64,000 nucleotides of DNA from Escherichia coli (lineage in GTDB: Bacteria > Pseudomonadota > Gammaproteobacteria > Enterobacterales > Enterobacteriaceae), in the NCBI RefSeq assembly GCF_030013595.1, contig NZ_CP122768.1; one strand, given 5' to 3'. The notes below the pieces were generated by a model. It had not been told where the DNA came from. It did not search any database and saw only the letters and a program-made list of their open reading frames with translations. The translations under genes were made by a program, and so were the position numbers. Positions 1,120-25,356 of this stretch are shown one piece after another. Numbering within the stretch: the stretch's first letter is position 1; each line of letters begins with the position of its first letter.

Positions 1120-1120
1120 A

Positions 1121-2657: not shown

Positions 2658-2999
2658 TCAGACGCCTGTCATAGCGGCGTATTTCTCCGTCTGGTAATGA
2701 ATAAACCAGGTCCGGGTCGCTCTTTTTTTCACTGCTGCTTTCGACATCTTTTTGCGGGCCTTTATCCAGTCCTTACGTGCCTGTTCAGACGGAAATAACC
2801 CGTAGCCGGAGTTGTATAAATCGCCACTGGCAACCAGCTCTCTGGCAAGAACACTCATCAGATACCTTGTCGCACCTGTCTTAGCTTCCAGTTGTCGTAA
2901 CGTCTCGCGCCCACTCTGGTGCACGAGCTCAACAACCTTCCCCTTAATTTTTTCCCGCTCTTCTTGTGTAAATACTTTTGCCATAAGCGCCTCCGGCAA
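2658..2999 (-). CDS. phage hypothetical protein
   Basis: 113-aa ORF directly downstream of and co-directional with the replication-module genes; no recognisable motif. Confidence 0.45.
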   Translation of the reverse strand: MPEALMAKVFTQEEREKIKGKVVELVHQSGRETLRQLEAKTGATRYLMSVLARELVASGDLYNSGYGLFPSEQARKDWIKARKKMSKAAVKKRATRTWFIHYQTEKYAAMTGV

Positions 3000-3770: not shown

Positions 3771-3792
3771 TAAAATTTCCTCCCGGTAAAAA

Positions 3793-4539: not shown

Positions 4540-4545
4540 GCTTCG

Positions 4546-5430: not shown

Positions 5431-5853
5431 TCAATGCACTACAACAGAATCGTCGGACGCTCCACCACCGCTGAAATGTGCTTTCCGGTAAACGGCCTGG
5501 ACTGCATCATCATGCGCATCAATTGCCGTACTCAACGCTTCCTGCGCCGCCAGTAATGCACGGCGTTCCAGGGTATCGAAGATGCAGAGTCGATGACGCA
5601 GCTCCCGCGGAAGGATTGCCAGAATTGCTGGGATCAGCTTCTGAATTTTTTCCCTTTGCGCTTCCGTTTCACCTTTTAACCAACGATGATAGATATTCTG
5701 CTGATTGTTCCAGTCCCTGCCTGGTACCAAGGGCAATTCGCCGTCCCCCTGGCGCAGATATTCTTCAGTAATTGCATTGGCTACCCATGCCTGCCCTTTT
5801 TCAGCGGCCAGGGCTAACAGCACTGATTCAATGTGCTCATGCCTGATTTTCAT
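5431..5853 (-). CDS. ydaT: Rac prophage protein YdaT-like
   Basis: 140-aa ORF in conserved position and of matching length to K-12 YdaT. Confidence 0.8.
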   Translation of the reverse strand: MKIRHEHIESVLLALAAEKGQAWVANAITEEYLRQGDGELPLVPGRDWNNQQNIYHRWLKGETEAQREKIQKLIPAILAILPRELRHRLCIFDTLERRALLAAQEALSTAIDAHDDAVQAVYRKAHFSGGGASDDSVVVH

Positions 5854-6139
5854 GAATCAACTCCTGTGCATTTTGTGTGTTAGCTTTACATCCAACAGGT
5901 AAACCATCGGTCGGATTCGGGTAGATATCAGGCCGAAGTTCATGAGGTGTAACCTCGAAATTCGTAGCCTCCGCGATACGCAATACCTTTTCGGGGCTTA
6001 ACTGACTACGGCCAGTAGCTACGAGGCTAATCATTGATTGCGAACAACCAGCGAGTGCAGCCAAACAAGACTGTCGTACACGATTTTTTTTCAAATATTC
6101 ATCTAATGTCATAAGGGTCACCTTAGTAATGCCTGTCAA
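5837..6139 (-). CDS. ydaS: Cro-like HTH regulator YdaS-like
   Basis: 100-aa ORF divergent from racR; HTH segment QSCLAALAGCSQSMISLVATG; start may be the internal Met (MTLDEYL). Confidence 0.8.
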   Translation of the reverse strand: MTGITKVTLMTLDEYLKKNRVRQSCLAALAGCSQSMISLVATGRSQLSPEKVLRIAEATNFEVTPHELRPDIYPNPTDGLPVGCKANTQNAQELIHENQA

Positions 6140-6216
6140 AATATTAACTATATTAATTTAAATGATCAATACCTATATCAGTTTGAGATTATGAGTTGTG
6201 TTCATAAGATGGTGGT

Positions 6217-6681
6217 ATGAGAAGAAAACGCGAAGAAATCGCATCGCCAGAAGCTACGCAGCGTCTGCGCGCAGTCTGGGATGCCAAAAAAAGAGAGCTC
6301 AAACTGACTCAGGAGCTTGCTGCTGAGCTAATGGGCTTTGAGACTCAATCCACAGTTAGCCACTATCTCAACGGAAAGGCTCCACTAAACACTGATGCAG
6401 CATTAAAATTCGCTGTATTACTAAGAGTTAAGCCTGAAGAGTTGAGGCCTGATTTAGCTGATCTGATGAATTACGTCCGTTCCTCAGGAACTTATGACGA
6501 AAGTTTCGAAGGAGAAGGTTGGCGGATGGTTAACAAGCAACAAGCTGATTTACTGGATCTTTTTGAAATCCTACCCGAATCAGAAAAAGCAAAACTAATC
6601 GAAAGGCTTAAAGGTCAGAATGAACTCTACAAAGAAGCGTTTGAAAAGATGCTGGCAGCTCAGAAACGCATGAAGAAATAG
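6217..6681 (+). CDS. racR: Rac prophage repressor (CI-like HTH)
   Basis: 154-aa ORF with HTH (TQELAAELMGFETQSTVSHYLNG), divergent from ydaS. Confidence 0.8.
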   Translation: MRRKREEIASPEATQRLRAVWDAKKRELKLTQELAAELMGFETQSTVSHYLNGKAPLNTDAALKFAVLLRVKPEELRPDLADLMNYVRSSGTYDESFEGEGWRMVNKQQADLLDLFEILPESEKAKLIERLKGQNELYKEAFEKMLAAQKRMKK

Positions 6682-6701
6682 CTCCCGTAACCTCGTAACT
6701 A

Positions 6702-6727
6702 AACCGCCATTTTTGGCGGTTTTTTTG
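6702..6727 (+). terminator. rho-independent terminator after racR
   Basis: Hairpin ccgcca-tttt-tggcgg followed by a T-run. Confidence 0.65.
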
Positions 6728-6916
6728 TCCCCTCTGCACCCTCACCTTTCTTTTTTATCAAAAAAAACACTAAAAATTTCATTACGATAGTACATTTTTA
6801 TCAATAAAATGCATATTTGTGTTGATCACTTATATGAATATAACTAATATTATTGCAGAAGCAGCACGGCGCTGTAGGTTTTAGTTCCGCCACCCGGCGT
6901 TAAAGGGAGAGATAAA

Positions 6917-7051
6917 ATGGTGCATTACGAAGTAGTTCAGTATTTGATGGATTGTTACGGCATCACTTACAGCCAGGCTGTACAGGCTCTACGCAGCAAC
7001 GACTGGGATCTCTGGCAGGCAGAAGCCTCTATCCGCAACAACAAGATGTGA
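6917..7051 (+). CDS. ydaG: Rac prophage small protein YdaG
   Basis: 44-aa ORF MVHYEVVQYLMDCYGITYSQAVQALRSNDWDLWQAEASIRNNKM, near-identical to remembered K-12 YdaG; GGGAGAG Shine-Dalgarno. Confidence 0.7.
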   Translation: MVHYEVVQYLMDCYGITYSQAVQALRSNDWDLWQAEASIRNNKM

Positions 7052-7062
7052 GGGTTTCCAAA

Positions 7063-7215
7063 ATGCAAAAAATCGACCTCGGCAACAACGAATCCCTAGT
7101 GTGTGGCGTGTTCCCCAACCAGGATGGAACGTTCACCGCCATGACTTATACCAAAAGCAAGACATTCAAAACTGAAACGGGCGCACGTCGCTGGCTTGCC
7201 AGAAATACTTGCTGA
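7063..7215 (+). CDS. ydaF: Rac prophage small protein YdaF
   Basis: 50-aa ORF MQKIDLGNNESLVCGVFPNQDGTFTAMTYTKSKTFKTE..., matches remembered YdaF. Confidence 0.7.
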   Translation: MQKIDLGNNESLVCGVFPNQDGTFTAMTYTKSKTFKTETGARRWLARNTC

Positions 7216-7462
7216 TCCATTATTTGGATTAATTCAATATTCTCGCTGTAGGGGTATAGCCGAGGCCACCAAAGCCCGGAGGTGGTGAAATAAAACCGGG
7301 CGCAACACGAAGGCGCATTTCCGATATCCATAAAGAGTCGGTTTTGTCTGTTAAATTTAAATGGTGGGAGTGCTCCTCCGGTTGTAAATAACGACATTGC
7401 TGTGTGTAGTCTTGGCGGCATCAGTTTTTTCTTGAAGTTCGGCTGATGTCCGCCCTTTTTAA

Positions 7463-7630
7463 AGTGAATTTTGTGATGCGGTGAATGCGGCTCAGCGCAC
7501 GCGGAACAGTTAAAAAAGTGATCGGTACTCTGTATTTGTTTTATGGAGTTGGTTTCCCTGTATTCCGGCGTTAATTGTTAACTGGTTAACGTCACCTGGA
7601 GGCACCAGGCACCGCATCACAAAATTCACT
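7463..7630. repeat. 21-bp perfect inverted repeat (AGTGAATTTTGTGATGCGGTG at 7463..7483, reverse complement at 7610..7630) flanking a 126-bp spacer in a non-coding gap
   Basis: Read directly from sequence. Confidence 0.85.
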
Positions 7631-7652
7631 TAGTAACCAAGAAGAGAATTAT

Positions 7653-7925
7653 ATGCAAGAGATAAGTTTTGAAATAACAGCAAAAGATGTACAGGTTAAG
7701 CCCGATTACAATCAAAAATTATGTATTGAAGTCAATGGCGTGAAGTTATCAGACCTGATTGATTCAGTTGAAGATAACGACGCTATTATTGAAATGGTTG
7801 GAGCCGAAGAAATAGCAGAATACTTTTCAACAGAGGGGCGTCTTCATGAGCTTCTGGAAAAATTTTCATATCAGGATATCGCTACATTTCTGGAAATTAA
7901 TGGTTATAAAGTTACCGAGGAATAA
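7653..7925 (+). CDS. hypothetical small strongly acidic protein (prophage early-region gene)
   Basis: 90-aa ORF; about 21 Asp/Glu versus about 8 basic residues by my count; not recognisable as kilR or sieB. Confidence 0.5.
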   Translation: MQEISFEITAKDVQVKPDYNQKLCIEVNGVKLSDLIDSVEDNDAIIEMVGAEEIAEYFSTEGRLHELLEKFSYQDIATFLEINGYKVTEE

Positions 7926-7943
7926 AGTAGCTCAGGTGGCGTT

Positions 7944-8153
7944 ATGGAACGTAATCATCTAACAGCTATCAGTGCCGCACAGAGTAAATTCGCCATCGCT
8001 GTATTTTTACAGGATGAAGAAATGTTTGAGCAGGCCATTATTCAGTTTGCAATTGCGACCGGGAGTAAAATAAATGAACACTTTGTTCGCTCTTGTCATG
8101 ACCGTTTTTCTGACATCAGGCGAAACTCAGGATGTTGTTACCGGAATTTATAA
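7944..8153 (+). CDS. hypothetical small protein (uncertain; overlaps next ORF in another frame)
   Basis: 69-aa ORF with AGGTGG Shine-Dalgarno 6 nt upstream; overlaps 8074..8310 by 80 nt. Confidence 0.3.
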   Translation: MERNHLTAISAAQSKFAIAVFLQDEEMFEQAIIQFAIATGSKINEHFVRSCHDRFSDIRRNSGCCYRNL

Positions 8154-8310
8154 CTCCGAATCTGAATGCAAGGCCGCAGCTATTGAGCAAAAAGTAGCTG
8201 GTGAATGTTTCCCTGTTGAGAAATTTATCCGGCCTGTAGATGAAGAAATTCCCGCAGGCCTCACAGGAGAAAATCATGAAAATAAAATGTGGTTACCACC
8301 TTTGCAATAA
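8074..8310 (+). CDS. hypothetical small protein with hydrophobic N-terminus (kilR-position gene, identity not confirmed)
   Basis: 78-aa ORF with GGGAG Shine-Dalgarno; N-terminal MNTLFALVMTVFLTSG is signal-peptide or TM-like. Confidence 0.4.
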   Translation: MNTLFALVMTVFLTSGETQDVVTGIYNSESECKAAAIEQKVAGECFPVEKFIRPVDEEIPAGLTGENHENKMWLPPLQ

Positions 8311-8440
8311 AGACGTTGAAGAAAGCAAAACCATTAAAAGACCACTTCATTTCATGCGTGGAGTTATCCCAACGACGGAAATGAAAAAATATTGTAGTGA
8401 AAATTGTGCCGAAAAAGACCAGATGGCACACGAACTTTAA
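8276..8440 (+). CDS. ydaE: Rac prophage small Cys-rich protein YdaE
   Basis: 54-aa ORF MKIKCGYHLCNKDVEESKTIKRPLHFMRGVIPTTEMKKYCSENCAEKDQMAHEL with AGGAGAAAA Shine-Dalgarno. Confidence 0.7.
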   Translation: MKIKCGYHLCNKDVEESKTIKRPLHFMRGVIPTTEMKKYCSENCAEKDQMAHEL

Positions 8441-8514
8441 TTAACTGACTATTCGAAACTGAATTTATGCCAGAAATGGCAGGGATTCGCTCAACCTTAA
8501 TTAAGGAGAAAAAC

Positions 8515-8790
8515 ATGATTACCAATTATGAAACCACTGTTGTAACTACCGATGACATTGTTCACGAGGTGAATCTGGAAGGAAAGCGCATTGGCTACGT
8601 AATTAAAACAGAAAATAAAGAAACCCCATTCACTGTGGTTGATATCGATGGTCCATCAGGCAACGTAAAAACACTTGATGAAGGTGTCACAAAAATGAGC
8701 CTGGTTCACATCGGAAAGAATCTGCCCGCAGAAAAAAAAGCCGGATTTCTGGCAACTCTGATCGCAATGAAATTAAACGGTGAAATCTGA
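8515..8790 (+). CDS. racC: Rac prophage protein RacC
   Basis: 91 aa from MITNYETTVV...; matches remembered RacC. Confidence 0.8.
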   Translation: MITNYETTVVTTDDIVHEVNLEGKRIGYVIKTENKETPFTVVDIDGPSGNVKTLDEGVTKMSLVHIGKNLPAEKKAGFLATLIAMKLNGEI

Positions 8791-8889
8791 AAAAAAGAAA
8801 GCCTGCACTGTGTGCAGGCCTGAGTGAAGAACCTGGGACATTTATTCATCACTCGCAGTAATTTTAATCTGAGTTGAGGTTAAAAAACA

Positions 8890-11541
8890 ATGAGCACAAA
8901 ACCACTCTTCCTTTTACGGAAAGCGAAAAAATCATCCGGTGAGCCTGACGTCGTCCTGTGGGCAAGCGACGATTTTGAATCAACCTGTGCCACTCTGGAC
9001 TACCTGATCGTTAAGTCAGGTAAAAAACTGAGCAACTATTTTAAAGCTATTGCAACTAATTTTCCTGTCGTTAATGACCTGCCCCCTGAAGGTGAGATCG
9101 ATTTTACCTGGAGTGAACGCTATCAACTCAGCAAAGACTCCATGACATGGGAACTAAAACCGGGAGCAGCGCCAGACGACGTTCACCACCAGGATAATGC
9201 TCAAGAAACCAACGAACTGGCGGGAGGCCAGGAAGAAAACGCGCAGGCAGACGCCCACGAGGATTGCCAGGATTGCGAAGTCTCTGTAGCCACTTTGCGG
9301 TTCACACAGCGTCTTCTGCACATTTTTACGTATGCAGCCGGGGATCGGAAATACCTGCATCATGCCACCCGTGAACAACGCAAACACATTACTGCTCTTG
9401 AGATGGATCAGGAAAACAGCTATGTCCAGAATCTGCTGTTGGCCATACGCAGCATGGCAGAACCGACAACTCTGGATAATGCCGCCCTGCTCCGCCTGAC
9501 TGATGCAATTAAGGCAGTGTTCTCTATCACGAAAAAACATCAGCCCTATGAATTTAAGAATTTCATTTCAGCCTGGCTGGATACCGAACACATTGATCGC
9601 GGTCTTCTGACAAAAGAATGGCGAAAAGGAAATCGTGTTTCACGCATCACGCGCACGGCTTCCGGCGCTAATGCTGGCGGCGGAAACCTCACCGATCGCG
9701 GCGAAGGTTTCGTTCACGATCTGACGTCACTGGCGCGCGACGTAGCCACTGGCGTACTGGCTCGTTCAATGGACGTGGACATTTATAACCTTCATCCGGC
9801 ACACGCTAAACGTGTCGAGGAAATTATCGCTGAAAATAAACCACCCTTTTCTGTTTTCCGCGACAAATTCATCACCATGCCTGGTGGGCTGGATTATTCC
9901 CGCGCCATCGTGGTTGCGTCCGTAAAAGAAGCACCAATTGGGATCGAGGTTATCCCCGCACACGTCACCGAATATCTTAACAAAGTACTGACTGAAACTG
10001 ATCATGCCAACCCTGATCCAGAAATCGTGGATATTGCCTGCGGTCGTTCCTCTGCCCCGATGCCGCAGCGTGTAACAGAAGAAGAAAAACAGGATGATGA
10101 AGAAAAACTGCAACCATCTTGCGCAATGGCAGATGAACAGGCAACGGCTGAAACAGTGGAACCGGATGCAACTGAACATCATCAGGACACGCAGTCGCTG
10201 GATGCTCAGTCACAGGTAAATTCTGTTGATGCGAAATATCAGAAACTGCGGGCAGAACTCCATGAAGCCCGGAAAAACATTCCGCCCAAAAATCCTGTCG
10301 ATGCAGACAAATTACTGGCTGCCTCTCGCGGAGAATTTGTTGAAGGGATTAGCGACCCGAATGATCCGAAATGGGTTAAGGGGATCCAGACCCGCGATTC
10401 TGTGTACCAGAACCAGCCAGAAACGGAAAAAACCAGCCCGGATGTGAAACAACCTGAGCCAGTAGTGCAACAGGAACCGGAAATAGTCTGCAATGCCTGC
10501 GGTCAGACTGGCGGGGATAACTGCCCTGACTGTGGTGCAGTGATGGGCGACGCAACATACCAGGAAACATTCGGTGAAGAGAATCAGGTTGAAGCTAAGG
10601 AAAAAGATCCGGAGGAAATGGAAGGCGCTGAACATCCGCACAATGAGAATGCTGGCAGCGATCCGCATCGCGATTGCAGTGATGAAACTGGCGAAGTCGC
10701 AGATCCCGTAATCGTAGAAGACATAGAGCCAGGTATTTATTACGGAATTTCGAATGAGAATTACCACGCGGGTCCCGGTGTCAGTAAGTCTCAGCTCGAT
10801 GACATTGCTGATACTCCGGCACTGTATTTGTGGCGTAAAAATGCCCCCGTGGACACTACAAAGACAAAAACGCTCGATTTAGGAACCGCTTTCCACTGCC
10901 GGGTACTTGAACCGGAAGAATTCAGTAACCGCTTTATCGTAGCACCTGAATTTAACCGCCGTACAAACGCCGGAAAAGAAGAAGAGAAAGCGTTTCTGAT
11001 GGAATGCGCAAGCACAGGAAAAACGGTTATCACTGCGGAAGAAGGCCGGAAAATTGAACTCATGTATCAAAGCGTTATGGCTTTGCCGCTGGGGCAATGG
11101 CTTGTTGAAAGCGCCGGACACGCTGAATCATCAATTTACTGGGAAGATCCGGAAACAGGAATTTTGTGTCGGTGCCGTCCGGACAAAATTATTCCTGAAT
11201 TTCACTGGATCATGGACGTGAAAACCACAGCGGATATTCAACGATTCAAAACGACTTATTACGACTACCGCTATCACGTTCAGGATGCATTCTACAGTGA
11301 CGGTTATGAAGCACAGTTTGGTGTGCAGCCAACTTTCGTTTTTCTGGTTGCCAGCACAACTGTTGAATGCGGACGTTATCCGGTTGAGATTTTCATGATG
11401 GGCGAAGAAGCAAAACTGGCAGGCCAGCAGGAATATCACCGCAATCTGCGGACCCTGGCTGACTGCCTAAATACCGATGAATGGCCAGCTATTAAGACGT
11501 TATCACTGCCCCGCTGGGCTAAGGAGTATGCAAATGACTAA
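8890..11541 (+). CDS. recE: exodeoxyribonuclease VIII (RecE), full length
   Basis: 883-aa ORF; N- and C-terminal regions match remembered K-12 RecE ([22 protein letters not shown]... and ...[13 protein letters not shown]); Cys cluster [16 protein letters not shown]. Confidence 0.9.
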
Positions 11542-12367
11542 GCAACCACCTATCGCAAAAGCCGATCTGCAAAAAACTCAGGGAAACCGTGCACCAGCAG
11601 CAGTTAACGATAAGGATGTGCTGTGCGTGATTAACAGCCCGGCAATGAAAGCGCAACTGGCAGCAGCTCTGCCACGTCACATGACAGCGGAACGCATGAT
11701 CCGCATTGCTACAACAGAAATCCGTAAAGTACCGGAACTAAGAAACTGTGACTCGACGAGTTTTATCGGTGCCATCGTACAGTGTTCACAGCTCGGACTT
11801 GAGCCAGGTAGCGCCCTCGGTCATGCATATCTGCTACCGTTCGGCAACGGAAAAGCAAAAAACGGTAAGAAGAACGTACAGCTGATCATCGGTTATCGCG
11901 GCATGATCGACCTTGCCCGTCGATCAGGTCAAATCATCAGTCTGTCAGCTCGTGTTGTCCGTGAATGTGATGAATTCAGCTATGAACTTGGTCTTGATGA
12001 AAAACTGGTTCATCGTCCCGGTGAAAACGAAGATGCCCCTATAACCCATGTCTATGCTGTTGCAAAACTGAAAGACGGAGGAGTGCAGTTTGAAGTCATG
12101 ACCCGCAAACAAGTAGAAAAAGTTCGCGACACACACAGCAAGGCGGCAAAAAACGCAGCGTCAAAAGGGGCGTCGTCCATCTGGGATGAACACTTTGAAG
12201 ACATGGCCAAAAAGACAGTGATACGAAAACTGTTCAAGTATCTGCCGGTATCTATTGAAATCCAGCGTGCAGTATCGATGGATGGAAAAGAGGTGGAAAC
12301 AATTAATCCAGACGACATATCGGTTATAGCCGGGGAATACAGTGTAATCGATAATCCAGAAGAATAA
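11534..12367 (+). CDS. recT: RecT single-strand annealing protein
   Basis: Start [23 protein letters not shown] overlapping recE stop by 8 nt; strong match to remembered RecT. Confidence 0.92.
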
Positions 12368-12411
12368 TCCAGCCTGGCGGTGTAATGCACCGCCAATGTG
12401 AGATAGTTTTT

Positions 12412-12618
12412 ATGACAAAAACTTTGAGATATGACGATGTTAAACCATGTCCGTTTTGTGGTTGTCCATCAGTAACGGTGAAAGACATTTCAGGATATTA
12501 CCGGGCAAAATGCAACGGATGCGAATCCCGAACTGGCTATGGTGGAAGTGAAAAAGAAGCGCTCGAAAGATGGAATAAACGAACCACTGAAAATATTAAT
12601 GGAGGCGTTCATGTATAA
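12412..12618 (+). CDS. ralR: restriction alleviation protein RalR (Lar)
   Basis: MTKTLRYDDVKPCPFCGCPSVTVK... matches remembered RalR. Confidence 0.85.
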   Translation: MTKTLRYDDVKPCPFCGCPSVTVKDISGYYRAKCNGCESRTGYGGSEKEALERWNKRTTENINGGVHV

Positions 12619-12799
12619 AATTACCGCTACAATTGAAAAGGAAGGTGGCACTCCTACTAACTGGACAAGATATTCAAAATCTAAACTAACGAAATCAGAA
12701 TGCGAAAAAATGCTCTCAGGTAAAAAAGAAGCAGGCGTTTCCAGAGAGCAGAAAGTAAAACTGATAAATTTTAATTGCGAGAAACTTCAGTCCTCGTGA
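12611..12799 (+). CDS. ydaC: Rac prophage small protein YdaC (RcbA)
   Basis: 62-aa ORF MYKITATIEKEGGTPTNW... with GGAGG Shine-Dalgarno; overlaps ralR stop. Confidence 0.7.
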   Translation: MYKITATIEKEGGTPTNWTRYSKSKLTKSECEKMLSGKKEAGVSREQKVKLINFNCEKLQSS

Positions 12800-12898
12800 A
12801 TTGCATTGTATTCAAATTAAAACTTCATAGCTGATTATTAATAATCAACATCAGGCGTCAATTTCAGTCTAACATTGGCGCCTGCCAGAGGTGATGCG

Positions 12899-13114
12899 AT
12901 GGCACAAGTAATCTTTAATGAAGAGTGGATGGTTGAATACGGCCTGATGCTTCGCACTGGTCTGGGGGCCAGACAAATTGAAGCATACCGCCAGAACTGT
13001 TGGGTGGAGGGCTTCCACTTCAAACGAGTATCTCCTTTAGGTAAGCCAGACAGCAAACGAGGGATTATCTGGTACAACTATCCAAAGATAAATCAGTTTA
13101 TCAAAGACTCATGA
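12899..13114 (+). CDS. xisR: Rac prophage excisionase
   Basis: [35 protein letters not shown]...; immediately upstream of the integrase. Confidence 0.8.
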
Positions 13115-13115
13115 T

Positions 13116-14351
13116 ATGTCTAAATTACCAACAGGTGTCGAGATTAGAGGTAGAAACATTCGCATCTGGTTCATGTTTCGAGGAAAACGATGTCGGGAAA
13201 CATTAAAAGGCTGGGAGATTACAAACAGTAATATTAAAAAGGCCGGAAATTTAAGAGCGCTGATAGTTCATGAAATAAACTCCGGTGAATTTGAGTATTT
13301 AAGACGTTTTCCCCAGTCCAGCACTGGGGCAAAAATGGTGACAACGAGAGTCATAAAAACGTTCGGGGAGCTTTGTGATATATGGACAAAAATTAAAGAG
13401 ACAGAGTTAACAACAAACACAATGAAGAAAACGAAATCACAATTAAAAACACTCAGAATAATAATTTGTGAAAGTACCCCGATATCATATATTCGTTATA
13501 GCGATATCTTAAACTACCGGAATGAACTGCTGCATGGAGAAACGCTTTACCTGGATAATCCAAGATCCAACAAAAAAGGAAGAACCGTGCGCACAGTTGA
13601 TAACTATATCGCCCTTCTCTGTTCGCTGTTACGTTTTGCGTATCAGTCGGGATTTATATCAACCAAACCATTTGAAGGAGTAAAAAAATTACAGCGAAAC
13701 AGAATAAAGCCTGACCCGTTATCTAAAACAGAATTCAATGCATTAATGGAAAGTGAAAAAGGACAGAGCCAAAACTTGTGGAAATTTGCCGTTTACTCCG
13801 GGCTTCGTCACGGGGAACTGGCAGCTCTTGCGTGGGAGGATGTGGATTTCGAGAAGGGAATTGTGAATGTCAGAAGAAACCTGACGATACTGGATATGTT
13901 CGGTCCCCCAAAAACAAATGCCGGGATCCGGACGGTAATATTACTGCAGCCTGCTCTTGAAGCACTGAAGGAGCAATACAAACTGACCGGGCATCATCGC
14001 AAAAGCGAAATCACCTTTTATCATCGGGAGTACGGCAGAACCGAAAAGCAAAAACTGCATTTTGTTTTCATGCCCAGGGTGTGTAACGGAAAACAGAAAC
14101 CTTATTACTCGGTAAGCAGTTTGGGGGCAAGGTGGAATGCAGCAGTAAAACGTGCTGGTATTCGCCGCCGTAATCCGTACCATACGCGGCATACATTTGC
14201 CTGCTGGCTGTTGACGGCAGGAGCGAACCCGGCATTTATAGCCAGCCAGATGGGGCATGAAACTGCGCAGATGGTGTATGAAATTTACGGTATGTGGATT
14301 GATGACATGAACGACGAACAGGTAGCCATGTTGAATGCGCGGCTATCGTAG
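13116..14351 (+). CDS. intR: Rac prophage tyrosine integrase
   Basis: 411-aa ORF with C-terminal catalytic region (..RHTFACWLL..HETAQMVYEIY..). Confidence 0.92.
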   Translation: MSKLPTGVEIRGRNIRIWFMFRGKRCRETLKGWEITNSNIKKAGNLRALIVHEINSGEFEYLRRFPQSSTGAKMVTTRVIKTFGELCDIWTKIKETELTTNTMKKTKSQLKTLRIIICESTPISYIRYSDILNYRNELLHGETLYLDNPRSNKKGRTVRTVDNYIALLCSLLRFAYQSGFISTKPFEGVKKLQRNRIKPDPLSKTEFNALMESEKGQSQNLWKFAVYSGLRHGELAALAWEDVDFEKGIVNVRRNLTILDMFGPPKTNAGIRTVILLQPALEALKEQYKLTGHHRKSEITFYHREYGRTEKQKLHFVFMPRVCNGKQKPYYSVSSLGARWNAAVKRAGIRRRNPYHTRHTFACWLLTAGANPAFIASQMGHETAQMVYEIYGMWIDDMNDEQVAMLNARLS

Positions 14352-14403
14352 TTGCAAAGTTTGCCCCCAATTTGCCCCATTGAGTACCAGAGAATCGAAA
14401 TAA

Positions 14404-15338
14404 TGCAAGAAAATCAAAAGAATACAAAGAAAGAACAATACAACCTGAACAAATTACAAAAACGTCTGCGTCGTAACGTGGGCGAAGCCATTGCTGACTT
14501 CAATATGATTGAAGAAGGCGATCGCATCATGGTTTGCCTCTCCGGGGGTAAAGACAGCTATACCATGCTGGAAATTCTGCGCAATTTGCAGCAAAGCGCG
14601 CCAATCAATTTTTCGCTGGTGGCTGTTAACCTCGATCAAAAGCAACCGGGCTTCCCGGAACACGTTCTGCCCGAGTATCTTGAAAAGCTGGGCGTTGAGT
14701 ACAAGATTGTTGAAGAGAACACTTACGGTATCGTGAAAGAGAAGATTCCGGAGGGCAAAACCACTTGCTCACTGTGTTCTCGTCTTCGTCGCGGTATCCT
14801 TTATCGTACCGCAACGGAACTGGGAGCGACGAAGATCGCGCTGGGTCACCATCGTGACGATATCCTGCAAACGTTGTTCTTAAATATGTTCTACGGCGGC
14901 AAGATGAAAGGTATGCCTCCGAAACTGATGAGCGATGATGGCAAACATATCGTGATTCGCCCTCTGGCCTACTGCCGCGAGAAAGATATTCAGCGCTTTG
15001 CCGATGCAAAAGCGTTCCCGATTATTCCGTGCAACCTGTGCGGTTCACAGCCTAACCTGCAACGTCAGGTGATTGCTGACATGTTGCGTGACTGGGATAA
15101 ACGTTATCCGGGGCGTATCGAGACGATGTTCAGCGCGATGCAGAATGTGGTGCCGTCGCATCTGTGCGATACCAACCTGTTCGATTTCAAAGGCATTACC
15201 CACGGTTCTGAAGTGGTTAACGGGGGTGATCTGGCGTTTGATCGCGAAGAGATCCCTCTACAACCGGCGGGTTGGCAGCCTGAAGAAGATGAAAATCAGT
15301 TGGATGAGTTACGACTGAATGTGGTTGAAGTGAAATAA
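14404..15338 (+). CDS. ttcA: tRNA 2-thiocytidine biosynthesis protein TtcA
   Basis: 311 aa from MQENQK..; PP-loop SGGKDS and CxxC motifs; the track ORF 14352.. is a TTG-start extension. Confidence 0.92.
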
Positions 15339-18555: not shown

Positions 18556-19749
18556 ATGATTACGCACAACTTCAATACCCTGGACTTACTCACCAGTCCT
18601 GTCTGGATCGTTTCGCCCTTTGAGGAACAGTTAATTTATGCCAATAGCGCGGCGCGACTGTTGATGCAAGACCTCACGTTTAGTCAGCTACGAACCGGTC
18701 CCTATTCCGTCTCCTCACAAAAAGAACTGCCAAAATACCTCTCCGATCTGCAAAACCAACACGATATTATCGAAATCCTCACCGTTCAACGTAAAGAAGA
18801 GGAAACAGCATTAAGCTGTCGGCTTGTTTTGCGAGAGCTTACAGAAGCAGAACCGGTGATTATTTTCGAAGGTATCGAAGCACCGGCAACGCTGGGTTTA
18901 AAAGCCAGTCGCTCGGCAAATTATCAGCGCAAAAAACAAGGTTTTTATGCGCGCTTTTTTCTGACTAACTCTGCACCAATGTTGTTGATTGACCCCTCAC
19001 GAGATGGCCAAATCGTCGATGCTAACCTCGCCGCGCTCAATTTCTATGGCTATAACCATGAAACGATGTGCCAGAAACATACCTGGGAAATAAATATGCT
19101 CGGGCGACGCGTCATGCCTATCATGCATGAAATTTCGCATTTACCCGGTGGCCATAAGCCTTTGAATTTTGTTCATAAACTGGCGGATGGTTCGACTCGT
19201 CATGTGCAGACCTATGCCGGTCCGATTGAAATTTATGGCGACAAGCTCATGTTATGTATTGTGCATGATATTACTGAGCAAAAACGGCTGGAGGAGCAGC
19301 TGGAACATGCTGCCCACCATGACGCGATGACCGGATTACTGAATCGGCGACAGTTTTATCACATTACCGAGCCAGGCCAAATGCAGCACCTCGCCATCGC
19401 TCAGGATTACAGCTTATTGCTCATCGACACAGATCGTTTTAAACACATTAACGATCTCTATGGGCATTCTAAAGGTGATGAGGTGTTATGCACCCTCGCC
19501 CGCACTCTCGAAAGTTGCGCTCGCAAAGGCGATTTGGTGTTTCGTTGGGGAGGCGAAGAGTTTGTCTTATTGCTACCAAGAACCCCACTGGATACCGCGC
19601 TTTCGCTGGCTGAAACTATCCGCGTAAGCGTGGCAAAAGTGAGTATTTCGGGCTTACCACGCTTTACCGTCAGCATTGGTGTGGCGCATCACGAAGGAAA
19701 TGAAAGCATCGATGAACTGTTTAAACGCGTTGATGATGCTTTGTACTGA
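18556..19749 (+). pseudogene. dgcM: diguanylate cyclase DgcM (YdaM), 3' end interrupted by IS10; translation stops at the first IS10 codon, last 13 codons displaced
   Basis: GGDEF protein ending ...ELFKRVDDALY then TGA inside the IS10 terminus; the expected tail RAKNDGRNRVLAA is encoded in frame on the far side of the IS. Confidence 0.85.
19737..19745. repeat. IS10 target-site duplication, left copy (TGCTTTGTA)
   Basis: Identical 9-mer directly flanks both IS10 ends. Confidence 0.9.
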
Positions 19750-21074
19750 TGAATCCCCTAATGATTTTGGTAAAAATCATTAAGTTAAGGTGGATACACA
19801 TCTTGTCATATGATCAAATGGTTTCGCGAAAAATCAATAATCAGACAACAAGATGTGCGAACTCGATATTTTACACGACTCTCTTTACCAATTCTGCCCC
19901 GAATTACACTTAAAACGACTCAACAGCTTAACGTTGGCTTGCCACGCATTACTTGACTGTAAAACTCTCACTCTTACCGAACTTGGCCGTAACCTGCCAA
20001 CCAAAGCGAGAACAAAACATAACATCAAACGAATCGACCGATTGTTAGGTAATCGTCACCTCCACAAAGAGCGACTCGCTGTATACCGTTGGCATGCTAG
20101 CTTTATCTGTTCGGGCAATACGATGCCCATTGTACTTGTTGACTGGTCTGATATTCGTGAGCAAAAACGACTTATGGTATTGCGAGCTTCAGTCGCACTA
20201 CACGGTCGTTCTGTTACTCTTTATGAGAAAGCGTTCCCGCTTTCAGAGCAATGTTCAAAGAAAGCTCATGACCAATTTCTAGCCGACCTTGCGAGCATTC
20301 TACCGAGTAACACCACACCGCTCATTGTCAGTGATGCTGGCTTTAAAGTGCCATGGTATAAATCCGTTGAGAAGCTGGGTTGGTACTGGTTAAGTCGAGT
20401 AAGAGGAAAAGTACAATATGCAGACCTAGGAGCGGAAAACTGGAAACCTATCAGCAACTTACATGATATGTCATCTAGTCACTCAAAGACTTTAGGCTAT
20501 AAGAGGCTGACTAAAAGCAATCCAATCTCATGCCAAATTCTATTGTATAAATCTCGCTCTAAAGGCCGAAAAAATCAGCGCTCGACACGGACTCATTGTC
20601 ACCACCCGTCACCTAAAATCTACTCAGCGTCGGCAAAGGAGCCATGGGTTCTAGCAACTAACTTACCTGTTGAAATTCGAACACCCAAACAACTTGTTAA
20701 TATCTATTCGAAGCGAATGCAGATTGAAGAAACCTTCCGAGACTTGAAAAGTCCTGCCTACGGACTAGGCCTACGCCATAGCCGAACGAGCAGCTCAGAG
20801 CGTTTTGATATCATGCTGCTAATCGCCCTGATGCTTCAACTAACATGTTGGCTTGCGGGCGTTCATGCTCAGAAACAAGGTTGGGACAAGCACTTCCAGG
20901 CTAACACAGTCAGAAATCGAAACGTACTCTCAACAGTTCGCTTAGGCATGGAAGTTTTGCGGCATTCTGGCTACACAATAACAAGGGAAGACTTACTCGT
21001 GGCTGCAACCCTACTAGCTCAAAATTTATTCACACATGGTTACGCTTTGGGGAAATTATGAGGGGATCTCTCAG
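19746..21074 (+). mobile_element. IS10 insertion sequence, complete (1329 bp), outside end towards dgcM
   Basis: Begins CTGATGAATCCCCTAATGATTTTGGTAAAAATCATTAAG and ends ...GGGGAAATTATGAGGGGATCTCTCAG; length and ends match remembered IS10. Confidence 0.95.
19853..21061 (+). CDS. IS10 transposase
   Basis: 402-aa ORF MCELDILHDSLYQFCPELHLKRLNSL...HGYALGKL matching remembered IS10 transposase. Confidence 0.95.
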   Translation: MCELDILHDSLYQFCPELHLKRLNSLTLACHALLDCKTLTLTELGRNLPTKARTKHNIKRIDRLLGNRHLHKERLAVYRWHASFICSGNTMPIVLVDWSDIREQKRLMVLRASVALHGRSVTLYEKAFPLSEQCSKKAHDQFLADLASILPSNTTPLIVSDAGFKVPWYKSVEKLGWYWLSRVRGKVQYADLGAENWKPISNLHDMSSSHSKTLGYKRLTKSNPISCQILLYKSRSKGRKNQRSTRTHCHHPSPKIYSASAKEPWVLATNLPVEIRTPKQLVNIYSKRMQIEETFRDLKSPAYGLGLRHSRTSSSERFDIMLLIALMLQLTCWLAGVHAQKQGWDKHFQANTVRNRNVLSTVRLGMEVLRHSGYTITREDLLVAATLLAQNLFTHGYALGKL

Positions 21075-21083
21075 TGCTTTGTA
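21075..21083. repeat. IS10 target-site duplication, right copy (TGCTTTGTA)
   Basis: Identical to the 9-mer at 19737..19745. Confidence 0.9.
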
Positions 21084-21126
21084 TCGGGCGAAAAATGATG
21101 GACGCAACCGCGTGCTGGCGGCATAG
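21084..21126 (+). other. displaced 3' fragment of dgcM (codons for RAKNDGRNRVLAA plus stop)
   Basis: In-frame continuation of dgcM across the IS10 duplication. Confidence 0.8.
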
Positions 21127-21146
21127 GCCGCGGATGCGTCTCGAGA

Positions 21147-21710
21147 TCAACGACTGCGCTTAGCGTGGCGCTCCCAGTTTTCTTGCTTTGCCTGTGCCGT
21201 TTTACGTAGTGCGACGTAACACGCCCCGCTGCCGCCATGATGCGGTAGCGCGGTACAATATGCCTGGACATCATCAAATTCGGTCAACCAGCGCGCCACA
21301 TAGCTGCGGACAATATTGGCATGCGATTTATCTTCCCGCCCTTTACCATGAATAATCAGCACATTACGCAAACCATCCGCCAGGGCTTGTTGAATGAAAC
21401 TGAACACCATTTTGCGGCACTCTTCCACCGGCTGGCGCAAAAGATTCAGGCTCGCCTGTTGCGGATATTTACCACTGCGCAGCTTATCCAGCACCCCGTG
21501 TTGCAACCCTTCCCGCCGAAACTCCAGCGGCTGACTTAGCGGGATGATGTCGAGAAATCCGGTGGTGAGGAAATTATCAAGTTGCAGCGTGTCGATACGC
21601 TGCGGCGCACGTTGGTTACGCGTTGGATGCCAGTGGACATCTGTAGCACGTTTCAGCGGCTGGACATCTTCCATGGCGTCAAGAAACAGCGATTTGTCGT
21701 CAAGGTTCAT
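21147..21710 (-). CDS. smrA: Smr-domain DNA endonuclease SmrA (YdaL)
   Basis: 187-aa ORF in conserved position next to dgcM. Confidence 0.9.
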   Translation of the reverse strand: MNLDDKSLFLDAMEDVQPLKRATDVHWHPTRNQRAPQRIDTLQLDNFLTTGFLDIIPLSQPLEFRREGLQHGVLDKLRSGKYPQQASLNLLRQPVEECRKMVFSFIQQALADGLRNVLIIHGKGREDKSHANIVRSYVARWLTEFDDVQAYCTALPHHGGSGACYVALRKTAQAKQENWERHAKRSR

Positions 21711-21904: not shown

Positions 21905-23419
21905 TCAGGATGATTTATTCATAGCAGGAACCAACAAAAATGCGATAAATAACAGACCACTGATTAGCAGAAAGGTATCCGAAAATGCCATAGTTTGCGC
22001 CTCCCTCAGCATCAATTGACTCAATAATTTGGTTGAAGCCAGTATTTCCGATGTCTGGTCACTTCCACTGCGATTAAAAAACAAAGCACTTCTGGAAATG
22101 AAGTCATTCACCGTATGGGGAACAGAAACCATTTTTTCACCCATTCTCGAAAAATGAAAATTAGTTCGATTATTGAGAATAGAGCCACACAGGGCAATAC
22201 CAATCGCGCCCCCAAGATTACGTGTTAAATTAAATACACCAGAGGCTAACTTCAGCCGTTCTTTTGGAATTCCCCCCAGCGTTAATGTTACGATGGGGGC
22301 CATCGCAAACTGCTGCGAAATCCCTCTAATTGCCTGTGGAAACAGTAACTCCTGCCATCCCCATTCGTGGGTTATAGGGGTAAAAAGATACATTGAAAAC
22401 ACAAATCCACCCAGCCCCGCCATCAACAGCCATCGCAGATTTATTTTTTTACTTAACCAGAAGTAAAAGGGAACAGAAAATAACTGGAAAATACCTGTTG
22501 TGCAAACGGCAAAACCTATCTCTTCGGCATTTAATCCGCGAACCTGCCCCAAAAACACAGGTATTAAATATACAGTAGAGAATATCCCAACCCCTCCAGA
22601 AAAAGAAAAAAAGCATCCCAGCGTGAAATTTTTATCCTTAAAAGCATGAAGATCCATTATCGGATTGGATATTGTAAGTGTACGCGCAGCAAATAAAATA
22701 AAACTCACCAATGCCAGAACTGATGTCAGCAAAATAGTATTATCATCCAGCCATCCCCAGCGCGCTCCTTCTTCAAGGGTATATTCCAGACATCCCAGTG
22801 TCATGGCCAACAGGATAATACTCGGATAATCAGCAACTTTCAGTAAAGAGAGATCAGGTTTATCAAAATTAACCAGAAAAGGAATACTCAAAACTAAATA
22901 TATGCCAGGTAATATATTGATATAAAATAGCCATCGCCAGTCGAGGTTATCAGTGATCCAGCCCCCCAGAGTTGGCCCTAGCGTCGGTGACAGTGAGGCC
23001 AGCGCACTGACTACCGCAGCAGCCACCCCCAACTCTTTACCCTGGTAATAAATAAACGCCGTCGTGAAAACTAAAGGGATCATGGATGCGCCAGCCGCTC
23101 CCTGTAAAGCACGAAACAAAATCATGATCTGAATATTCCATGCAAGTCCACACGCGATACTCATTAAAGTAAATATTCCCGCGGATAGAGTAAAAAGCCA
23201 ACGAGTGGAAAATACCCGTGACAGCCACCCAGAGAGCGGAATAACAATAATCTCAGCAATTAAATAGCTGGTCTGAAGCCAGGCCATTTCGTCTTTACCT
23301 GCGGACAGACCACCACCTATTTCATTTAGGGATGACGATACAATTTGAATATCAAGCTGAGCAATAAATAATCCCATACACATACTGGCGAAAGCAATAT
23401 GTTTACGCATAGACATCAT
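21905..23419 (-). CDS. MFS drug-efflux transporter, EmrB/QacA-like (14-TMS type)
   Basis: 504-aa highly hydrophobic ORF with typical MFS features; start overlaps the stop of the upstream fusion-protein gene. Confidence 0.8.
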   Translation of the reverse strand: MMSMRKHIAFASMCMGLFIAQLDIQIVSSSLNEIGGGLSAGKDEMAWLQTSYLIAEIIVIPLSGWLSRVFSTRWLFTLSAGIFTLMSIACGLAWNIQIMILFRALQGAAGASMIPLVFTTAFIYYQGKELGVAAAVVSALASLSPTLGPTLGGWITDNLDWRWLFYINILPGIYLVLSIPFLVNFDKPDLSLLKVADYPSIILLAMTLGCLEYTLEEGARWGWLDDNTILLTSVLALVSFILFAARTLTISNPIMDLHAFKDKNFTLGCFFSFSGGVGIFSTVYLIPVFLGQVRGLNAEEIGFAVCTTGIFQLFSVPFYFWLSKKINLRWLLMAGLGGFVFSMYLFTPITHEWGWQELLFPQAIRGISQQFAMAPIVTLTLGGIPKERLKLASGVFNLTRNLGGAIGIALCGSILNNRTNFHFSRMGEKMVSVPHTVNDFISRSALFFNRSGSDQTSEILASTKLLSQLMLREAQTMAFSDTFLLISGLLFIAFLLVPAMNKSS

Positions 23420-24447
23420 CTCTCATCAACACTGACGGTGACGGACAGTCCCGGGCGAAGAAGTTGCTTTAATTCCTTTGCGTCGTCAAATGCAATCCGT
23501 ACCGGGACTCGCTGAACAATTTTGGTGAAATTGCCAGTGGCATTTTCTATCGGAATCAAGCTGAAACTGGCTCCTGTCGCTGGGGAAAGGCTTTCAATGT
23601 GACCGTGAAACACTTCCCCTTTGAGAATATCAGCACGGATCTCAGCCTTCATTCCTGGCTTCATTCCCGCTATTTGGTTTTCTTTATAATTTGCATCAAC
23701 CCACAACTCACTGACTGGTACAAGTGAAACTAACGATGTGCCACCTTCCACCCAACTGCCTGTATGGGCGCTGCGGTTTGCGACAATGCCATCAATCGGC
23801 GCACGAACAAGGGTATATTCCAGATCCAGTAGTGCCTGAGTCAAAGCGGCCTGAACTTCTTCGATACTCGCACGTACGTTTTCTTCCTGAGCAGATAAAA
23901 CTGCCAGCCGTTGCTTCTCCACCAGGAAATCGTTCGCGGCTTTGCGCTCCTTTGCTGCGACCTGCTGGTAGTCAAACCTGGCATTATCAATAATTTGTTG
24001 CGATATTGCCGCTGATTGTGCGAGTTTTTCATAACGTTCAGTATCTCGCAGGCGCTTTTGCTCCTCATGTTTTACTGCCTGCCATGTTTCACTGGCACTT
24101 TGAATTATCGACTGCTGCATCGCAATAGTGGCTTGAATGCTTTCGAGATTGGCTTTGCTACTTTTTATTTTTGCCTCAAGCCTGGCGACATTTGCACGAT
24201 AATCCCGATCATCGAGACGCAGGATAATATCGCCTTTTTTTACGCTCTGATTATCGCGCACCTCTATAGCAGAAATATAACCAGAAACTTTACTTGCCAC
24301 CGTGGTGATATTACCACCAATGTAAGCATCATCCGTCGTCTGTATAAATCTTCCTGTGCTTACCCACCAGATAAAAAAGACAACGCCAGCTAAAATAATA
24401 CCGATCGCTACCACCCCAATAAGCTGTTTTTTAGAAATTATCATCAC
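23416..24447 (-). CDS. membrane fusion protein, EmrA/HlyD family
   Basis: 343-aa ORF with N-terminal TM anchor, coiled-coil region and C-terminal beta domain. Confidence 0.8.
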   Translation of the reverse strand: MMIISKKQLIGVVAIGIILAGVVFFIWWVSTGRFIQTTDDAYIGGNITTVASKVSGYISAIEVRDNQSVKKGDIILRLDDRDYRANVARLEAKIKSSKANLESIQATIAMQQSIIQSASETWQAVKHEEQKRLRDTERYEKLAQSAAISQQIIDNARFDYQQVAAKERKAANDFLVEKQRLAVLSAQEENVRASIEEVQAALTQALLDLEYTLVRAPIDGIVANRSAHTGSWVEGGTSLVSLVPVSELWVDANYKENQIAGMKPGMKAEIRADILKGEVFHGHIESLSPATGASFSLIPIENATGNFTKIVQRVPVRIAFDDAKELKQLLRPGLSVTVSVDER

Positions 24448-24540
24448 TCTTTACACCGTATATATCCGGAAACTTGCATTCGTCATATTTAAAATTTAAC
24501 ATGGCTTATTTGATGATTTCTGACAAAATACCTACTGTAA

Positions 24541-25356
24541 ATGACAATCACACTGCAACCCAAAGCATCACCAGGGCATCACATTATCGGACTGGATTCG
24601 GAACATCTGAATGGAGGTACAGTTCCCTGGCATAAACATCTCTATGCCCAGTTGCTTTACCCGGCTGAAGGAGTCGTTCGTGTATGGGCTGGAGAAAGCG
24701 TCTGGCTAGTGCATGCCAGCAGCGCGCTTTGGCTGCCCCCACAAATGCCGCATAAGTTTGTTGCGACAGGCAACGTACTTTTAAAAACCGTACTGGTTTC
24801 AGAAGCGGAAAGTGAAACGCTGGGAAAAGTTTGCTTCATGACGGGTATTTCACCCCTGTTAAGGGAATTACTAATTGCAATTAACCAACTTCCACCGTCG
24901 CAAAGTACCACAGATAAACAACAGTTACGTTTTTCAGCCCTCGAGACACTGATACTTCAGGAAATAAAAATGGGGGTGAAAATGTCACTTGAACTCCCTT
25001 GGCCAAATGATGAGCGGCTACAGCAGCTTTGTGAGAATTTGCTAAACAACCAAGGGTATCTGCCAACATTGGATAATCTAGCGGATAAAATTAACGTCAG
25101 TAGCCGTACACTCATGCGCTTATTTGTTAAAGAGACGGGATTAACATTTCGCCACTGGGTTCAGCAAATGCACGTTATTTCTGCAGTGACGCTTCTTGAT
25201 GATGGATATTCGTTGACCAAAATTGCCCATCGTCTGGGCTATGCCTCAGCTGAATCGTTCGGCAATATGTTTAAGCGTCGAACGGGCTACTCGCCCGGTA
25301 AATTTACTCGTCGATTAACGATGCATGATTATGCAATCACAAGACAAATGATTTAA
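24541..25356 (+). CDS. AraC-family transcriptional regulator (cupin-like N-terminus, HTH C-terminus)
   Basis: 271-aa ORF, divergent from the efflux genes; C-terminal AraC-type HTH region. Confidence 0.75.
   Translation: MTITLQPKASPGHHIIGLDSEHLNGGTVPWHKHLYAQLLYPAEGVVRVWAGESVWLVHASSALWLPPQMPHKFVATGNVLLKTVLVSEAESETLGKVCFMTGISPLLRELLIAINQLPPSQSTTDKQQLRFSALETLILQEIKMGVKMSLELPWPNDERLQQLCENLLNNQGYLPTLDNLADKINVSSRTLMRLFVKETGLTFRHWVQQMHVISAVTLLDDGYSLTKIAHRLGYASAESFGNMFKRRTGYSPGKFTRRLTMHDYAITRQMI

Follow-up and report, generated by a model that had tools for sequence, protein, structure and literature searches.

The dgcM locus and its IS10 element

The 64-kb window (the whole stretch of E. coli DNA analysed, 64,000 nucleotides) carries a dgcM (ydaM) gene interrupted close to its 3' end by an insertion sequence. 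The truncated dgcM coding sequence (positions 18556..19749, plus strand) runs for 397 codons, ends in ...DDALY and is followed by TGA. A complete IS10 of the IS10-Right type (19746..21074, plus strand, 1329 bp) comes next, its outside end adjoining the 5' part of dgcM and its inside end adjoining the dgcM remnant and smrA. The orphaned 3' end of dgcM (21085..21126, plus strand) consists of 13 codons, RAKNDGRNRVLAA, and the original TAG at 21124-21126. We took the start of DgcM at 18556 (MITHNF...) and its full length of 410 aa from the annotated protein of a relative, WP_064226398.1, and not from the first ATG of the open reading frame. The convergent neighbour smrA (21147..21710, minus strand; open reading frame list and the relative's annotation) is uninterrupted, and its stop codon lies 20 bases past the original dgcM stop and 72 bases from the inside end of IS10. 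The transcription unit ends with dgcM, which faces smrA convergently, so the insertion is not expected to have polar effects further downstream. The other genes of the curli circuit, pdeR, mlrA, csgD, rpoS and dgcE, lie outside the 64-kb window.

The terminal inverted repeats of the element, each about 23 bp, are imperfect and keep the CTGA...ATCCCCT core. The outside-end repeat, CTGATGAATCCCCTAATGATTTT (19746..19768, plus strand), matches the reverse complement of the inside end (21052..21074, minus strand) at 17 of 23 positions. The inside-end repeat carries a Dam site (GATC) at IS base 1320 and a second GATC is found at IS base 67, in the pIN region, so that both Dam sites of IS10 are present; their regulatory meaning is known from the IS10 literature. 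The transposase gene (19853..21061, plus strand, its ATG at IS base 108) appears in the open reading frame list as an uninterrupted frame of 402 aa. Its product scores 404 bits against the NCBIfam model for IS4-family transposases (NF033591, cut-off 152) and retains D97, D161 and E292, which we take to be the catalytic residues of Tn10 transposase; the exact protein sequence is that of a multispecies RefSeq protein found on at least 1000 contigs. Overlapping the start of this gene is the antisense RNA-OUT (19791..19860, minus strand, IS10 bases 115 to 46), which Rfam RF00240 recovers at full length (1-70 of 70) with 98.8 bits (gathering score 41; E 1.1e-20). As every required sequence feature is intact, this copy is predicted to be transposition-competent. 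The NCBI annotation pipeline labels the element "IS4-like element ISVsa5 family".

Compared with the tetD-side IS10 of Tn10 in R100 (NC_002134), the copy described here is identical at 1328 of 1329 positions; the sole difference, at IS base 203, is synonymous and leaves the transposase protein unchanged. The other R100 copy, on the jemA/gltS side, differs from it at 16 positions. From the published Tn10 map we take the tetD-side copy to be IS10-Right. Copies 100% identical to the one in dgcM are present in many plasmids and chromosomes.

Target duplication, empty site and rarity of the allele

The element is flanked by a 9-bp target-site duplication, TGCTTTGTA, whose left copy occupies 19737..19745 and right copy 21075..21083 (read from the raw sequence and by script). 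These two copies are the only occurrences of the 9-mer on either strand of the 64-kb window, and the chance of a 9-base match at two fixed positions is 4^-9, about 4e-6. Both the intact 1329-bp IS10 and its 9-bp duplication had been called in an earlier, sequence-only reading of this DNA, and all of its coordinates for them proved correct. Against the IS10 target consensus NGCTNAGCN, taken from PMC2744996 and describing a preference rather than a requirement, the duplicated target matches 4 of the 6 specified positions in either orientation; non-optimal IS10 target sites are used less frequently (PMC2744996). The inserted length of 1329 + 9 = 1338 bases is a multiple of 3, which places the dgcM remnant in register with the upstream part of the gene. 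That same reading had taken this in-frame remnant to show a recent simple insertion. The remnant is in frame and the insertion does appear to be simple and fairly recent, but the frame is no proof of it: the insertion can be called simple because the duplication is perfect and the empty site exact. Misassembly was considered and judged unlikely, the duplication being perfect and the ends of the element precise.

Comparison with uninterrupted loci, which the sequence-only reading had proposed as a check, bears the insertion out. When IS10 and one repeat are removed in silico, what remains is exactly the empty site seen in two near-identical pig isolates. Aligned with strain HCP5S3_I2, the excised locus shows no gap and 99.93% identity over 11.25 kb, and the orphaned 3' end is identical to that of the intact dgcM of that strain. 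The right flank differs from the relative by 19 substitutions and one 1-bp indel over 42.9 kb, and the left flank, a prophage junction apart, by 1 substitution over 5.3 kb; the rest of the 64-kb window is collinear with the relative's chromosome. The strain is an E. coli closely related to pig faecal isolates from the UK.

Among complete RefSeq E. coli genomes, a 600-bp empty-site probe was contiguous in all of those holding the locus (5,383/5,383), and a probe for the IS10-dgcM junction was covered by none of the 5,426 complete E. coli genomes. The exact 35-base left junction had no match in the GTDB species representatives or in JGI metagenomes, and look-up of the exact truncated products (397 aa and 417 aa) in a gene index found neither on record. 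Within the literature searched no dgcM::IS10 allele was found; the combination of IS10 and dgcM retrieved only unrelated sRNA papers. The insertion is a real but ordinary strain-specific (private) mutation. It is ordinary because IS10 is so widespread, with matches at 4,436 chromosomal places in 1,967 of the 5,426 complete E. coli genomes (36%).

This frequency also bears on the suggestion that IS10 usually marks Tn10 history, which did not hold up, as the copy is solo, IS10 occurs in 1,967 of 5,426 genomes and the window is silent on Tn10. Tn10 in R100, used here for comparison, has tetR/tetA(B) and the jem genes between two IS10 copies in inverted orientation. By script check the 64-kb window holds a single IS10 copy, and with excision restoring the empty site and the remainder collinear with the relative, a composite Tn10 at this locus was rejected. 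The element shares with the IS10-Right of Tn10 (R100, NC_002134) its length, terminal repeats, RNA-OUT, Dam sites, 9-bp duplication and transposase, and differs from it in being a solo, chromosomal copy with neither an inverted second copy nor tet genes within the 64-kb window.

Truncation of the GGDEF domain and its predicted consequences

The join between dgcM and IS10 reads ...GAT GAT GCT TTG TAC TGA, in which IS10 contributes its base 1 as the C of the final Tyr codon and its bases 2-4 as the TGA stop, and DgcM now ends at Tyr397. That IS10 supplies the stop, that the protein ends at DDALY and that 13 residues are lost had all been proposed beforehand and are confirmed by the sequence together with the relative's intact gene. 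Pfam assigns to the restored protein a PAS domain and a GGDEF domain at residues 253-406 of 410 (PF00990 positions 1-161). Nine of the 13 lost residues lie inside this domain and four outside it, in keeping with the earlier statement that the missing segment is part of the GGDEF C-terminus. The truncated protein matches only positions 1-153 of the 168 in TIGR00254, so its GGDEF domain is incomplete, while the active-site motif GGEEF at residue 332 lies upstream of the truncation and is retained. We suggest annotating dgcM in this strain as a pseudogene or as a truncated allele.

Within the 13 lost residues fall K400 and R404 of the RAKNDGRNR motif. The ALYRAKxxGRNR motif, lost here, is nearly invariant among solved cyclases, and RAKxxGRNR occurs in every one that we aligned. 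The GTP phosphates are held in PleD by K442 and R446, and a beta strand is the last element of the GGDEF core (PMC7288161). K400 and R404 of DgcM would correspond to PleD K442 and R446 to within one position; the mapping was made through the conserved motif and through PDB chain ranges, which vary by one residue from entry to entry. A single-sequence AF2 model of DgcM residues 241-410 places a helix at 385-401 and the last strand at 407-409; its mean pLDDT is 59, a low confidence at which it lends only weak support to the C-terminal secondary structure. The final strand of the GGDEF fold is probably lost, as the known fold topology and this model indicate. With the Lys and Arg that contact the GTP phosphates removed, and probably the final strand as well, loss of DgcM cyclase activity is very likely.

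The interpretation that we favor, and consider highly probable as a whole, is an IS10 insertion that abolishes the cyclase and leaves a strong hypomorph or null allele for csgD and curli. A transposition-competent IS10-Right-type element would have inserted by simple cut-and-paste into the non-hotspot TGCTTTGTA, 13 codons before the end of dgcM, after this lineage had split from its nearest sequenced relatives. The truncation is predicted to cut the last helix short and to take away both the conserved GRN loop and the final GGDEF strand, and the loss of K400 and R404 would eliminate diguanylate cyclase activity. Losing a core strand would probably destabilise the GGDEF domain also. The GGDEF domain of DgcM is needed both for cyclase activity and for activation of MlrA (PMC3715855, PMC5052742), and the allele should behave as a strong hypomorph or null for csgD/curli activation. 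A consequence of the truncation for biofilm and curli is plausible and may be partial. Its size is uncertain because about half of the output survives without catalysis: a DgcM GGAAF active-site mutant retains ~50% of csgB::lacZ expression, and >80% in a pdeR mutant (PMC3715855).

That residual output of the GGAAF mutant also argues for a milder outcome, in which the truncated GGDEF domain folds and still co-activates MlrA, and c-di-GMP synthesis alone is lost; curli output would then fall by roughly half and the positive feedback by which the CsgD-ON state is stabilised would be weakened. If the domain does fold, the curli defect would be only partial, and just 13 residues are missing, four of them beyond the Pfam domain. 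Against this, the lost segment includes the final core strand according to the known fold topology and the AF2 model, and removal of an edge or core strand would usually destabilise a small alpha/beta domain; we regard such a separation of functions as unlikely. That DgcM(1-397) is fully functional and the insertion phenotypically neutral we find scarcely credible: C-terminal tails are sometimes dispensable as a general point, but the RAKxxGRNR segment conserved in every solved cyclase aligned supplies GTP-binding residues, and the 3' end of dgcM is uninterrupted in all 5,383 genomes with the locus. Rather improbable, in our estimation, is an allele naturally selected in pig-gut E. coli, whether for separation of function or for a curli-off state, or tuned by pOUT antisense, such that the bistable curli switch is reshaped and not broken. 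In the first of these forms, DgcM(1-397) loses c-di-GMP synthesis and the CsgD-ON feedback and keeps some co-activation of MlrA.

Two further accounts concern the element more than the protein. The sequence-only reading had pointed to an outward promoter facing the dgcM 3' end, and this holds, since RNA-OUT lies on the minus strand and pOUT drives it in the direction of the outside end and hence of dgcM. Transcripts from pOUT, at ~10% of lacUV5 strength, are known to reach adjacent DNA and alter the expression of neighbours (PMC9330008, PMC2744996), and pOUT antisense might accordingly be the main effect, silencing dgcM and possibly reaching zntB in the sense direction. Yet the coding truncation alone would be enough to explain a defect, and zntB is ~1.45 kb away, beyond the whole of dgcM, so a chiefly regulatory effect seems very unlikely. 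Under the favored interpretation, transcripts continuing from pOUT past the element would be antisense to the dgcM 3' end, a secondary effect at most. A promoter scan of 19300-21500 returned no promoter-like site; it was too strict, having missed the documented pIN and pOUT too, and a terminator scan of the same interval gave three terminator-like hairpins against 2.1 expected, which is chance level. There is, finally, a very slight chance that the insertion is not natural and stems from passage or cloning in the laboratory in a host that carries IS10, or from an assembly error. In laboratory E. coli IS10 is active, it is a known contaminant of cloned sequences, the exact transposase sequence even bears a "human" UniProt name (Q6AW98_HUMAN), and the junction is absent from every other public genome and metagenome searched. 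Set against these points, real transposition, and not misassembly, leaves a full-length element with precise ends inside a perfect duplication, and to either side lies ordinary chromosomal DNA that is collinear with that of wild pig isolates.

Comparison with known IS10 insertions and curli-pathway lesions

Known cases of IS10 activating its neighbours make use of the same element and the same outward promoter: pOUT switches on otsBA in evolved rpoS-null E. coli and acrEF in Salmonella, and the targets in those cases likewise match GCTNAGC imperfectly (PMC2744996, PMC9330008). There, pOUT enters the gene in the sense direction from upstream, whereas here the element sits at the 3' end of dgcM with pOUT convergent, so that only antisense RNA is possible and gene activation is not. 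In contrast to the activation of otsBA and acrEF, the effect at dgcM is truncation, possibly accompanied by antisense RNA.

The insertion teaches nothing new on IS10, GGDEF enzymes or the curli circuit. It matters mainly for annotation and for predicting the phenotype of the strain: at low temperature, curli production or the rdar colony form may be reduced in the isolate. As a natural variant, the allele might also be used to ask whether MlrA co-activation, besides catalysis, requires the last helix and strand of the GGDEF domain in DgcM.

Natural E. coli commonly carry loss-of-function lesions in c-di-GMP genes (PMC5635171). The natural lesions of curli control belong to the same pathway as this allele and are events of the same type, with a csgD regulator put out of action by a mobile element or a point lesion. 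Known examples are a prophage in mlrA (O157:H7), an IS1 in csgB (O78:K80), a dgcE frameshift together with a pdeR E620K substitution in soil isolates, and stop codons in pdeR/yciR (PMC6029578, PMC5635171); in the present case the gene and the position, the 3' end of dgcM, are different. A functional counterpart is the DgcM(GGAAF) mutant of Lindenberg et al. 2013 (PMC3715855), which is cyclase-dead, as is predicted here, and which like the truncated protein keeps the N-terminal PAS region. DgcM(GGAAF), however, is full-length and folded and remains able to activate MlrA, whereas the product of the allele described here would be without a structural element and its stability is doubtful.

Layout and identity of the element in dgcM

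The sequence-only reading had placed an intact IS10 with 9-bp direct repeats in the end of dgcM, and a sequence reading of 19500–21400 with a script check bore out every detail. The 9-mer TGCTTTGTA lies at 19737–19745 and again at 21075–21083, the copies are spaced by exactly 1329 bases (19746–21074), and a script scan of both strands found no further copy in the 64-kb window. The left IS10 terminus is CTGATGAATCCCCTAATGATTTT and the right is ...GAAATTATGAGGGGATCTCTCAG; as inverted repeats these ends match at 17 of 23 positions (script). The dgcM frame runs into the element as ...GAT GAT GCT TTG TAC TGA, with IS bases 1–4 supplying the third base of the Tyr codon and the entire stop codon, which confirms by frame reading the loss of the final 13 residues. 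The severed 3' end of the gene, comprising the 13 codons for RAKNDGRNRVLAA and its own TAG stop, survives intact past the second repeat copy (21085–21126). The sole adjustment to the earlier description is the DgcM start, annotated at 18556, which gives a full length of 410 aa and a truncated protein, DgcM(1-397), of 397 aa. Fitting the IS10 target preference NGCTNAGCN (PMC2744996) at four of six specified positions, the target TGCTTTGTA is, judged by its sequence, an ordinary non-hotspot site.

The sole long ORF in the element (19853–21061) encodes 402 aa; with NF033591, the NCBIfam model for IS4 transposases, it reaches 404 bits (cut-off 152). An identical multispecies protein in RefSeq, found on at least 1000 contigs, is named by NCBI 'IS4-like element ISVsa5 family transposase'. 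The encoded protein has D97, D161 and E292, the catalytic triad of the Tn10 transposase. GATC occurs in the element only twice, at IS bases 67 and 1320, which are the two Dam-regulated sites of the Tn10 literature. The antisense RNA-OUT is full length on the minus strand, 19860 to 19791 (Rfam RF00240, 98.8 bits, gathering score 41); it spans IS bases 115 to 46 and overlaps the transposase ATG at base 108. The same exact transposase sequence also carries a human UniProt name, Q6AW98_HUMAN ('DKFZp686P13170'), presumably recording an IS10 transposition from the E. coli cloning host into cDNA. That record indicates that a laboratory origin of IS10 junctions is possible.

Compared with the two IS10 copies of Tn10 on plasmid R100, the element differs from the tetD-side copy at 1 of 1329 bases (a synonymous GCA for GCC) and from the jemA/gltS-side copy at 16 bases. 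The published Tn10 map assigns the tetD side to IS10-Right, the module that is active in transposition. Neither a second IS10 copy nor tet genes are present within the 64-kb window; the Tn10 reading was therefore rejected and the element is a solo IS10. IS10 sequence occurs in 1,967 of 5,426 complete E. coli genomes, 1,174 of them with a near-full copy, at 4,436 chromosomal places (median 2 and maximum 45 per positive genome) and in 3,172 plasmid records. Such abundant solo chromosomal copies do not suggest that IS10 marks a Tn10 history.

The empty site and the surrounding region

To the left of the element the sequence matches, at 100% identity, that of two pig faecal isolates from the UK, HCP5S3_I2 and LCP30S3_I5; both have an intact dgcM that converges with smrA. 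When the element and one copy of the repeat are removed in silico, exactly their sequence across the site results, without a gap, as a simple insertion predicts, and identity is 99.93% over 11.25 kb. The right 42.9 kb differs from the relative by only 19 substitutions and one 1-bp indel, and the left 5.3 kb by a single substitution, besides five clustered ones at the junction with a prophage; the genomes next in rank reach 99.3% identity. A reconstructed 600-bp empty-site probe was contiguous in all 5,383 complete RefSeq genomes containing the site, and a 600-bp left-junction probe was covered by none of 5,426 complete genomes. The exact junction was not found in GTDB species representatives or JGI metagenomes, nor did the truncated protein match the gene index. 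In the data searched the insertion is therefore confined to this strain, and on this sequence comparison it arose after the strain diverged from the nearest relatives sequenced.

Several other features were observed. A Rac-like lambdoid prophage end (recET, ralR/xisR region, intR) occupies 1–14351, with recE at 8890–11541, recT at about 11.5–12.4 kb and intR at 13116–14351, integrated beside ttcA (about 14403–15338); five clustered substitutions (14418–14426) mark its attachment junction. HCP5S3_I2 has no prophage there (gene order ompN-uspF-ttcA), and pig ETEC strains give the best match elsewhere (98.8% over 82% of the stretch). At the left end of the prophage part, three closely spaced ORFs without NCBIfam or PADLOC matches lie in a block of 36% G+C (294–2287, minus strand) that the best-matching Rac-like prophage lacks. 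The first (388 aa) matches only phrog_3364, of unknown function, with sub-threshold histidine-kinase-like ATPase matches (E 0.014 and 0.041); the second (104 aa) is DUF4325 STAS-like (E 9e-12); the third (172 aa) has by eye an apparently hydrophobic N-terminal stretch. The block may be an accessory or defence-type cassette. Between smrA and abgR lies an efflux-type trio (21905–25356): a DHA2 MFS permease (21905–23419, an open 504-aa ORF), an HlyD-family gene (23416–24447) and an AraC-family gene (24541–25356). The NCBI annotation of HCP5S3_I2 has the permease as a pseudogene, frameshifted and with another 3' end, despite DNA identical between 21084 and 25439; damage to the gene may be common to both strains. 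At 44216 one T is missing from the closest relative, whose ycjF is annotated frameshifted, so the window strain, by its sequence, keeps the intact form there (44075–45136, 353 aa).

Consequences for dgcM transcription and the DgcM protein

The outward IS10 promoter had been said to face the dgcM 3' end, and the minus-strand position of RNA-OUT agrees: pOUT points from the outside end into that 3' end. Transcripts from pOUT, at about 10% of lacUV5 strength, can reach flanking DNA, and sense-oriented pOUT can activate neighbouring genes (PMC9330008; PMC2744996). Here pOUT is convergent with dgcM, so any read-through would be antisense. With no gene after dgcM in its unit and with smrA convergent, a polar effect on a downstream gene is not expected. 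A generic promoter scan around the element returned zero matches, missing even the documented IS10 promoters, and was set aside. The only substitution in the zntB-dgcM region, T at 18500 for C in the nearest relative, sits 56 bases before the start codon of dgcM, where it makes a second upstream ATG. It may fall within the dgcM leader, a target region of the sRNAs OmrA and OmrB (PMC6443205).

By Pfam matches to the restored protein, PAS domains span about 130–244 and the GGDEF domain 253–406 (model positions 1–161 of 161). Against TIGR00254 the truncated form stops at position 153 of 168; the loss therefore amounts to nine residues of the domain plus a tail of four. The lost motif ALY/RAKxxGRNRV (slash at the truncation point) is almost invariant among solved cyclases aligning with DgcM. 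Its Lys and Arg are DgcM K400 and R404, which PDB chain ranges place at PleD 441/442 and 445/446, the one-residue ambiguity being one of chain numbering. A low-confidence AlphaFold single-sequence model (mean pLDDT 59, C-terminal blocks 68–78) has its last helix at 385–401 and last strand at 407–409, and agrees that the truncation would take the final strand together with the GRN loop and the helix end. The loss of cyclase activity is almost certain, and the GGDEF domain is probably destabilised.

Predicted effect on the curli circuit

DgcM and MlrA jointly activate csgD, and PdeR restrains both until c-di-GMP rises (PMC5052742); the remaining circuit genes lie outside the window. An active-site GGAAF DgcM, without cyclase activity, keeps csgB::lacZ output at about 50%, and at more than 80% when pdeR is mutated (Lindenberg et al., PMC3715855). 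The GGDEF domain also binds the MlrA C-terminal domain, and both functions rely on it (Lindenberg et al., PMC3715855), and the phenotype consequently hinges on the folding of DgcM(1-397). If the protein folds, output would fall by about half; if it does not, the allele would be effectively null and curli strongly reduced. We favour the unfolded, effectively null outcome, and the insertion probably disables dgcM.

The dgcM::IS10 allele merits an annotation note as a real, strain-specific insertion of a fully known element. It is not surprising: stop codons and frameshifts in c-di-GMP genes are frequent among natural isolates (PMC5635171), and mobile-element lesions in the curli pathway are well known, among them a prophage in mlrA and IS1 in csgB (PMC6029578). 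Both the element and this type of event are already known, and only the insertion site is unrecorded.
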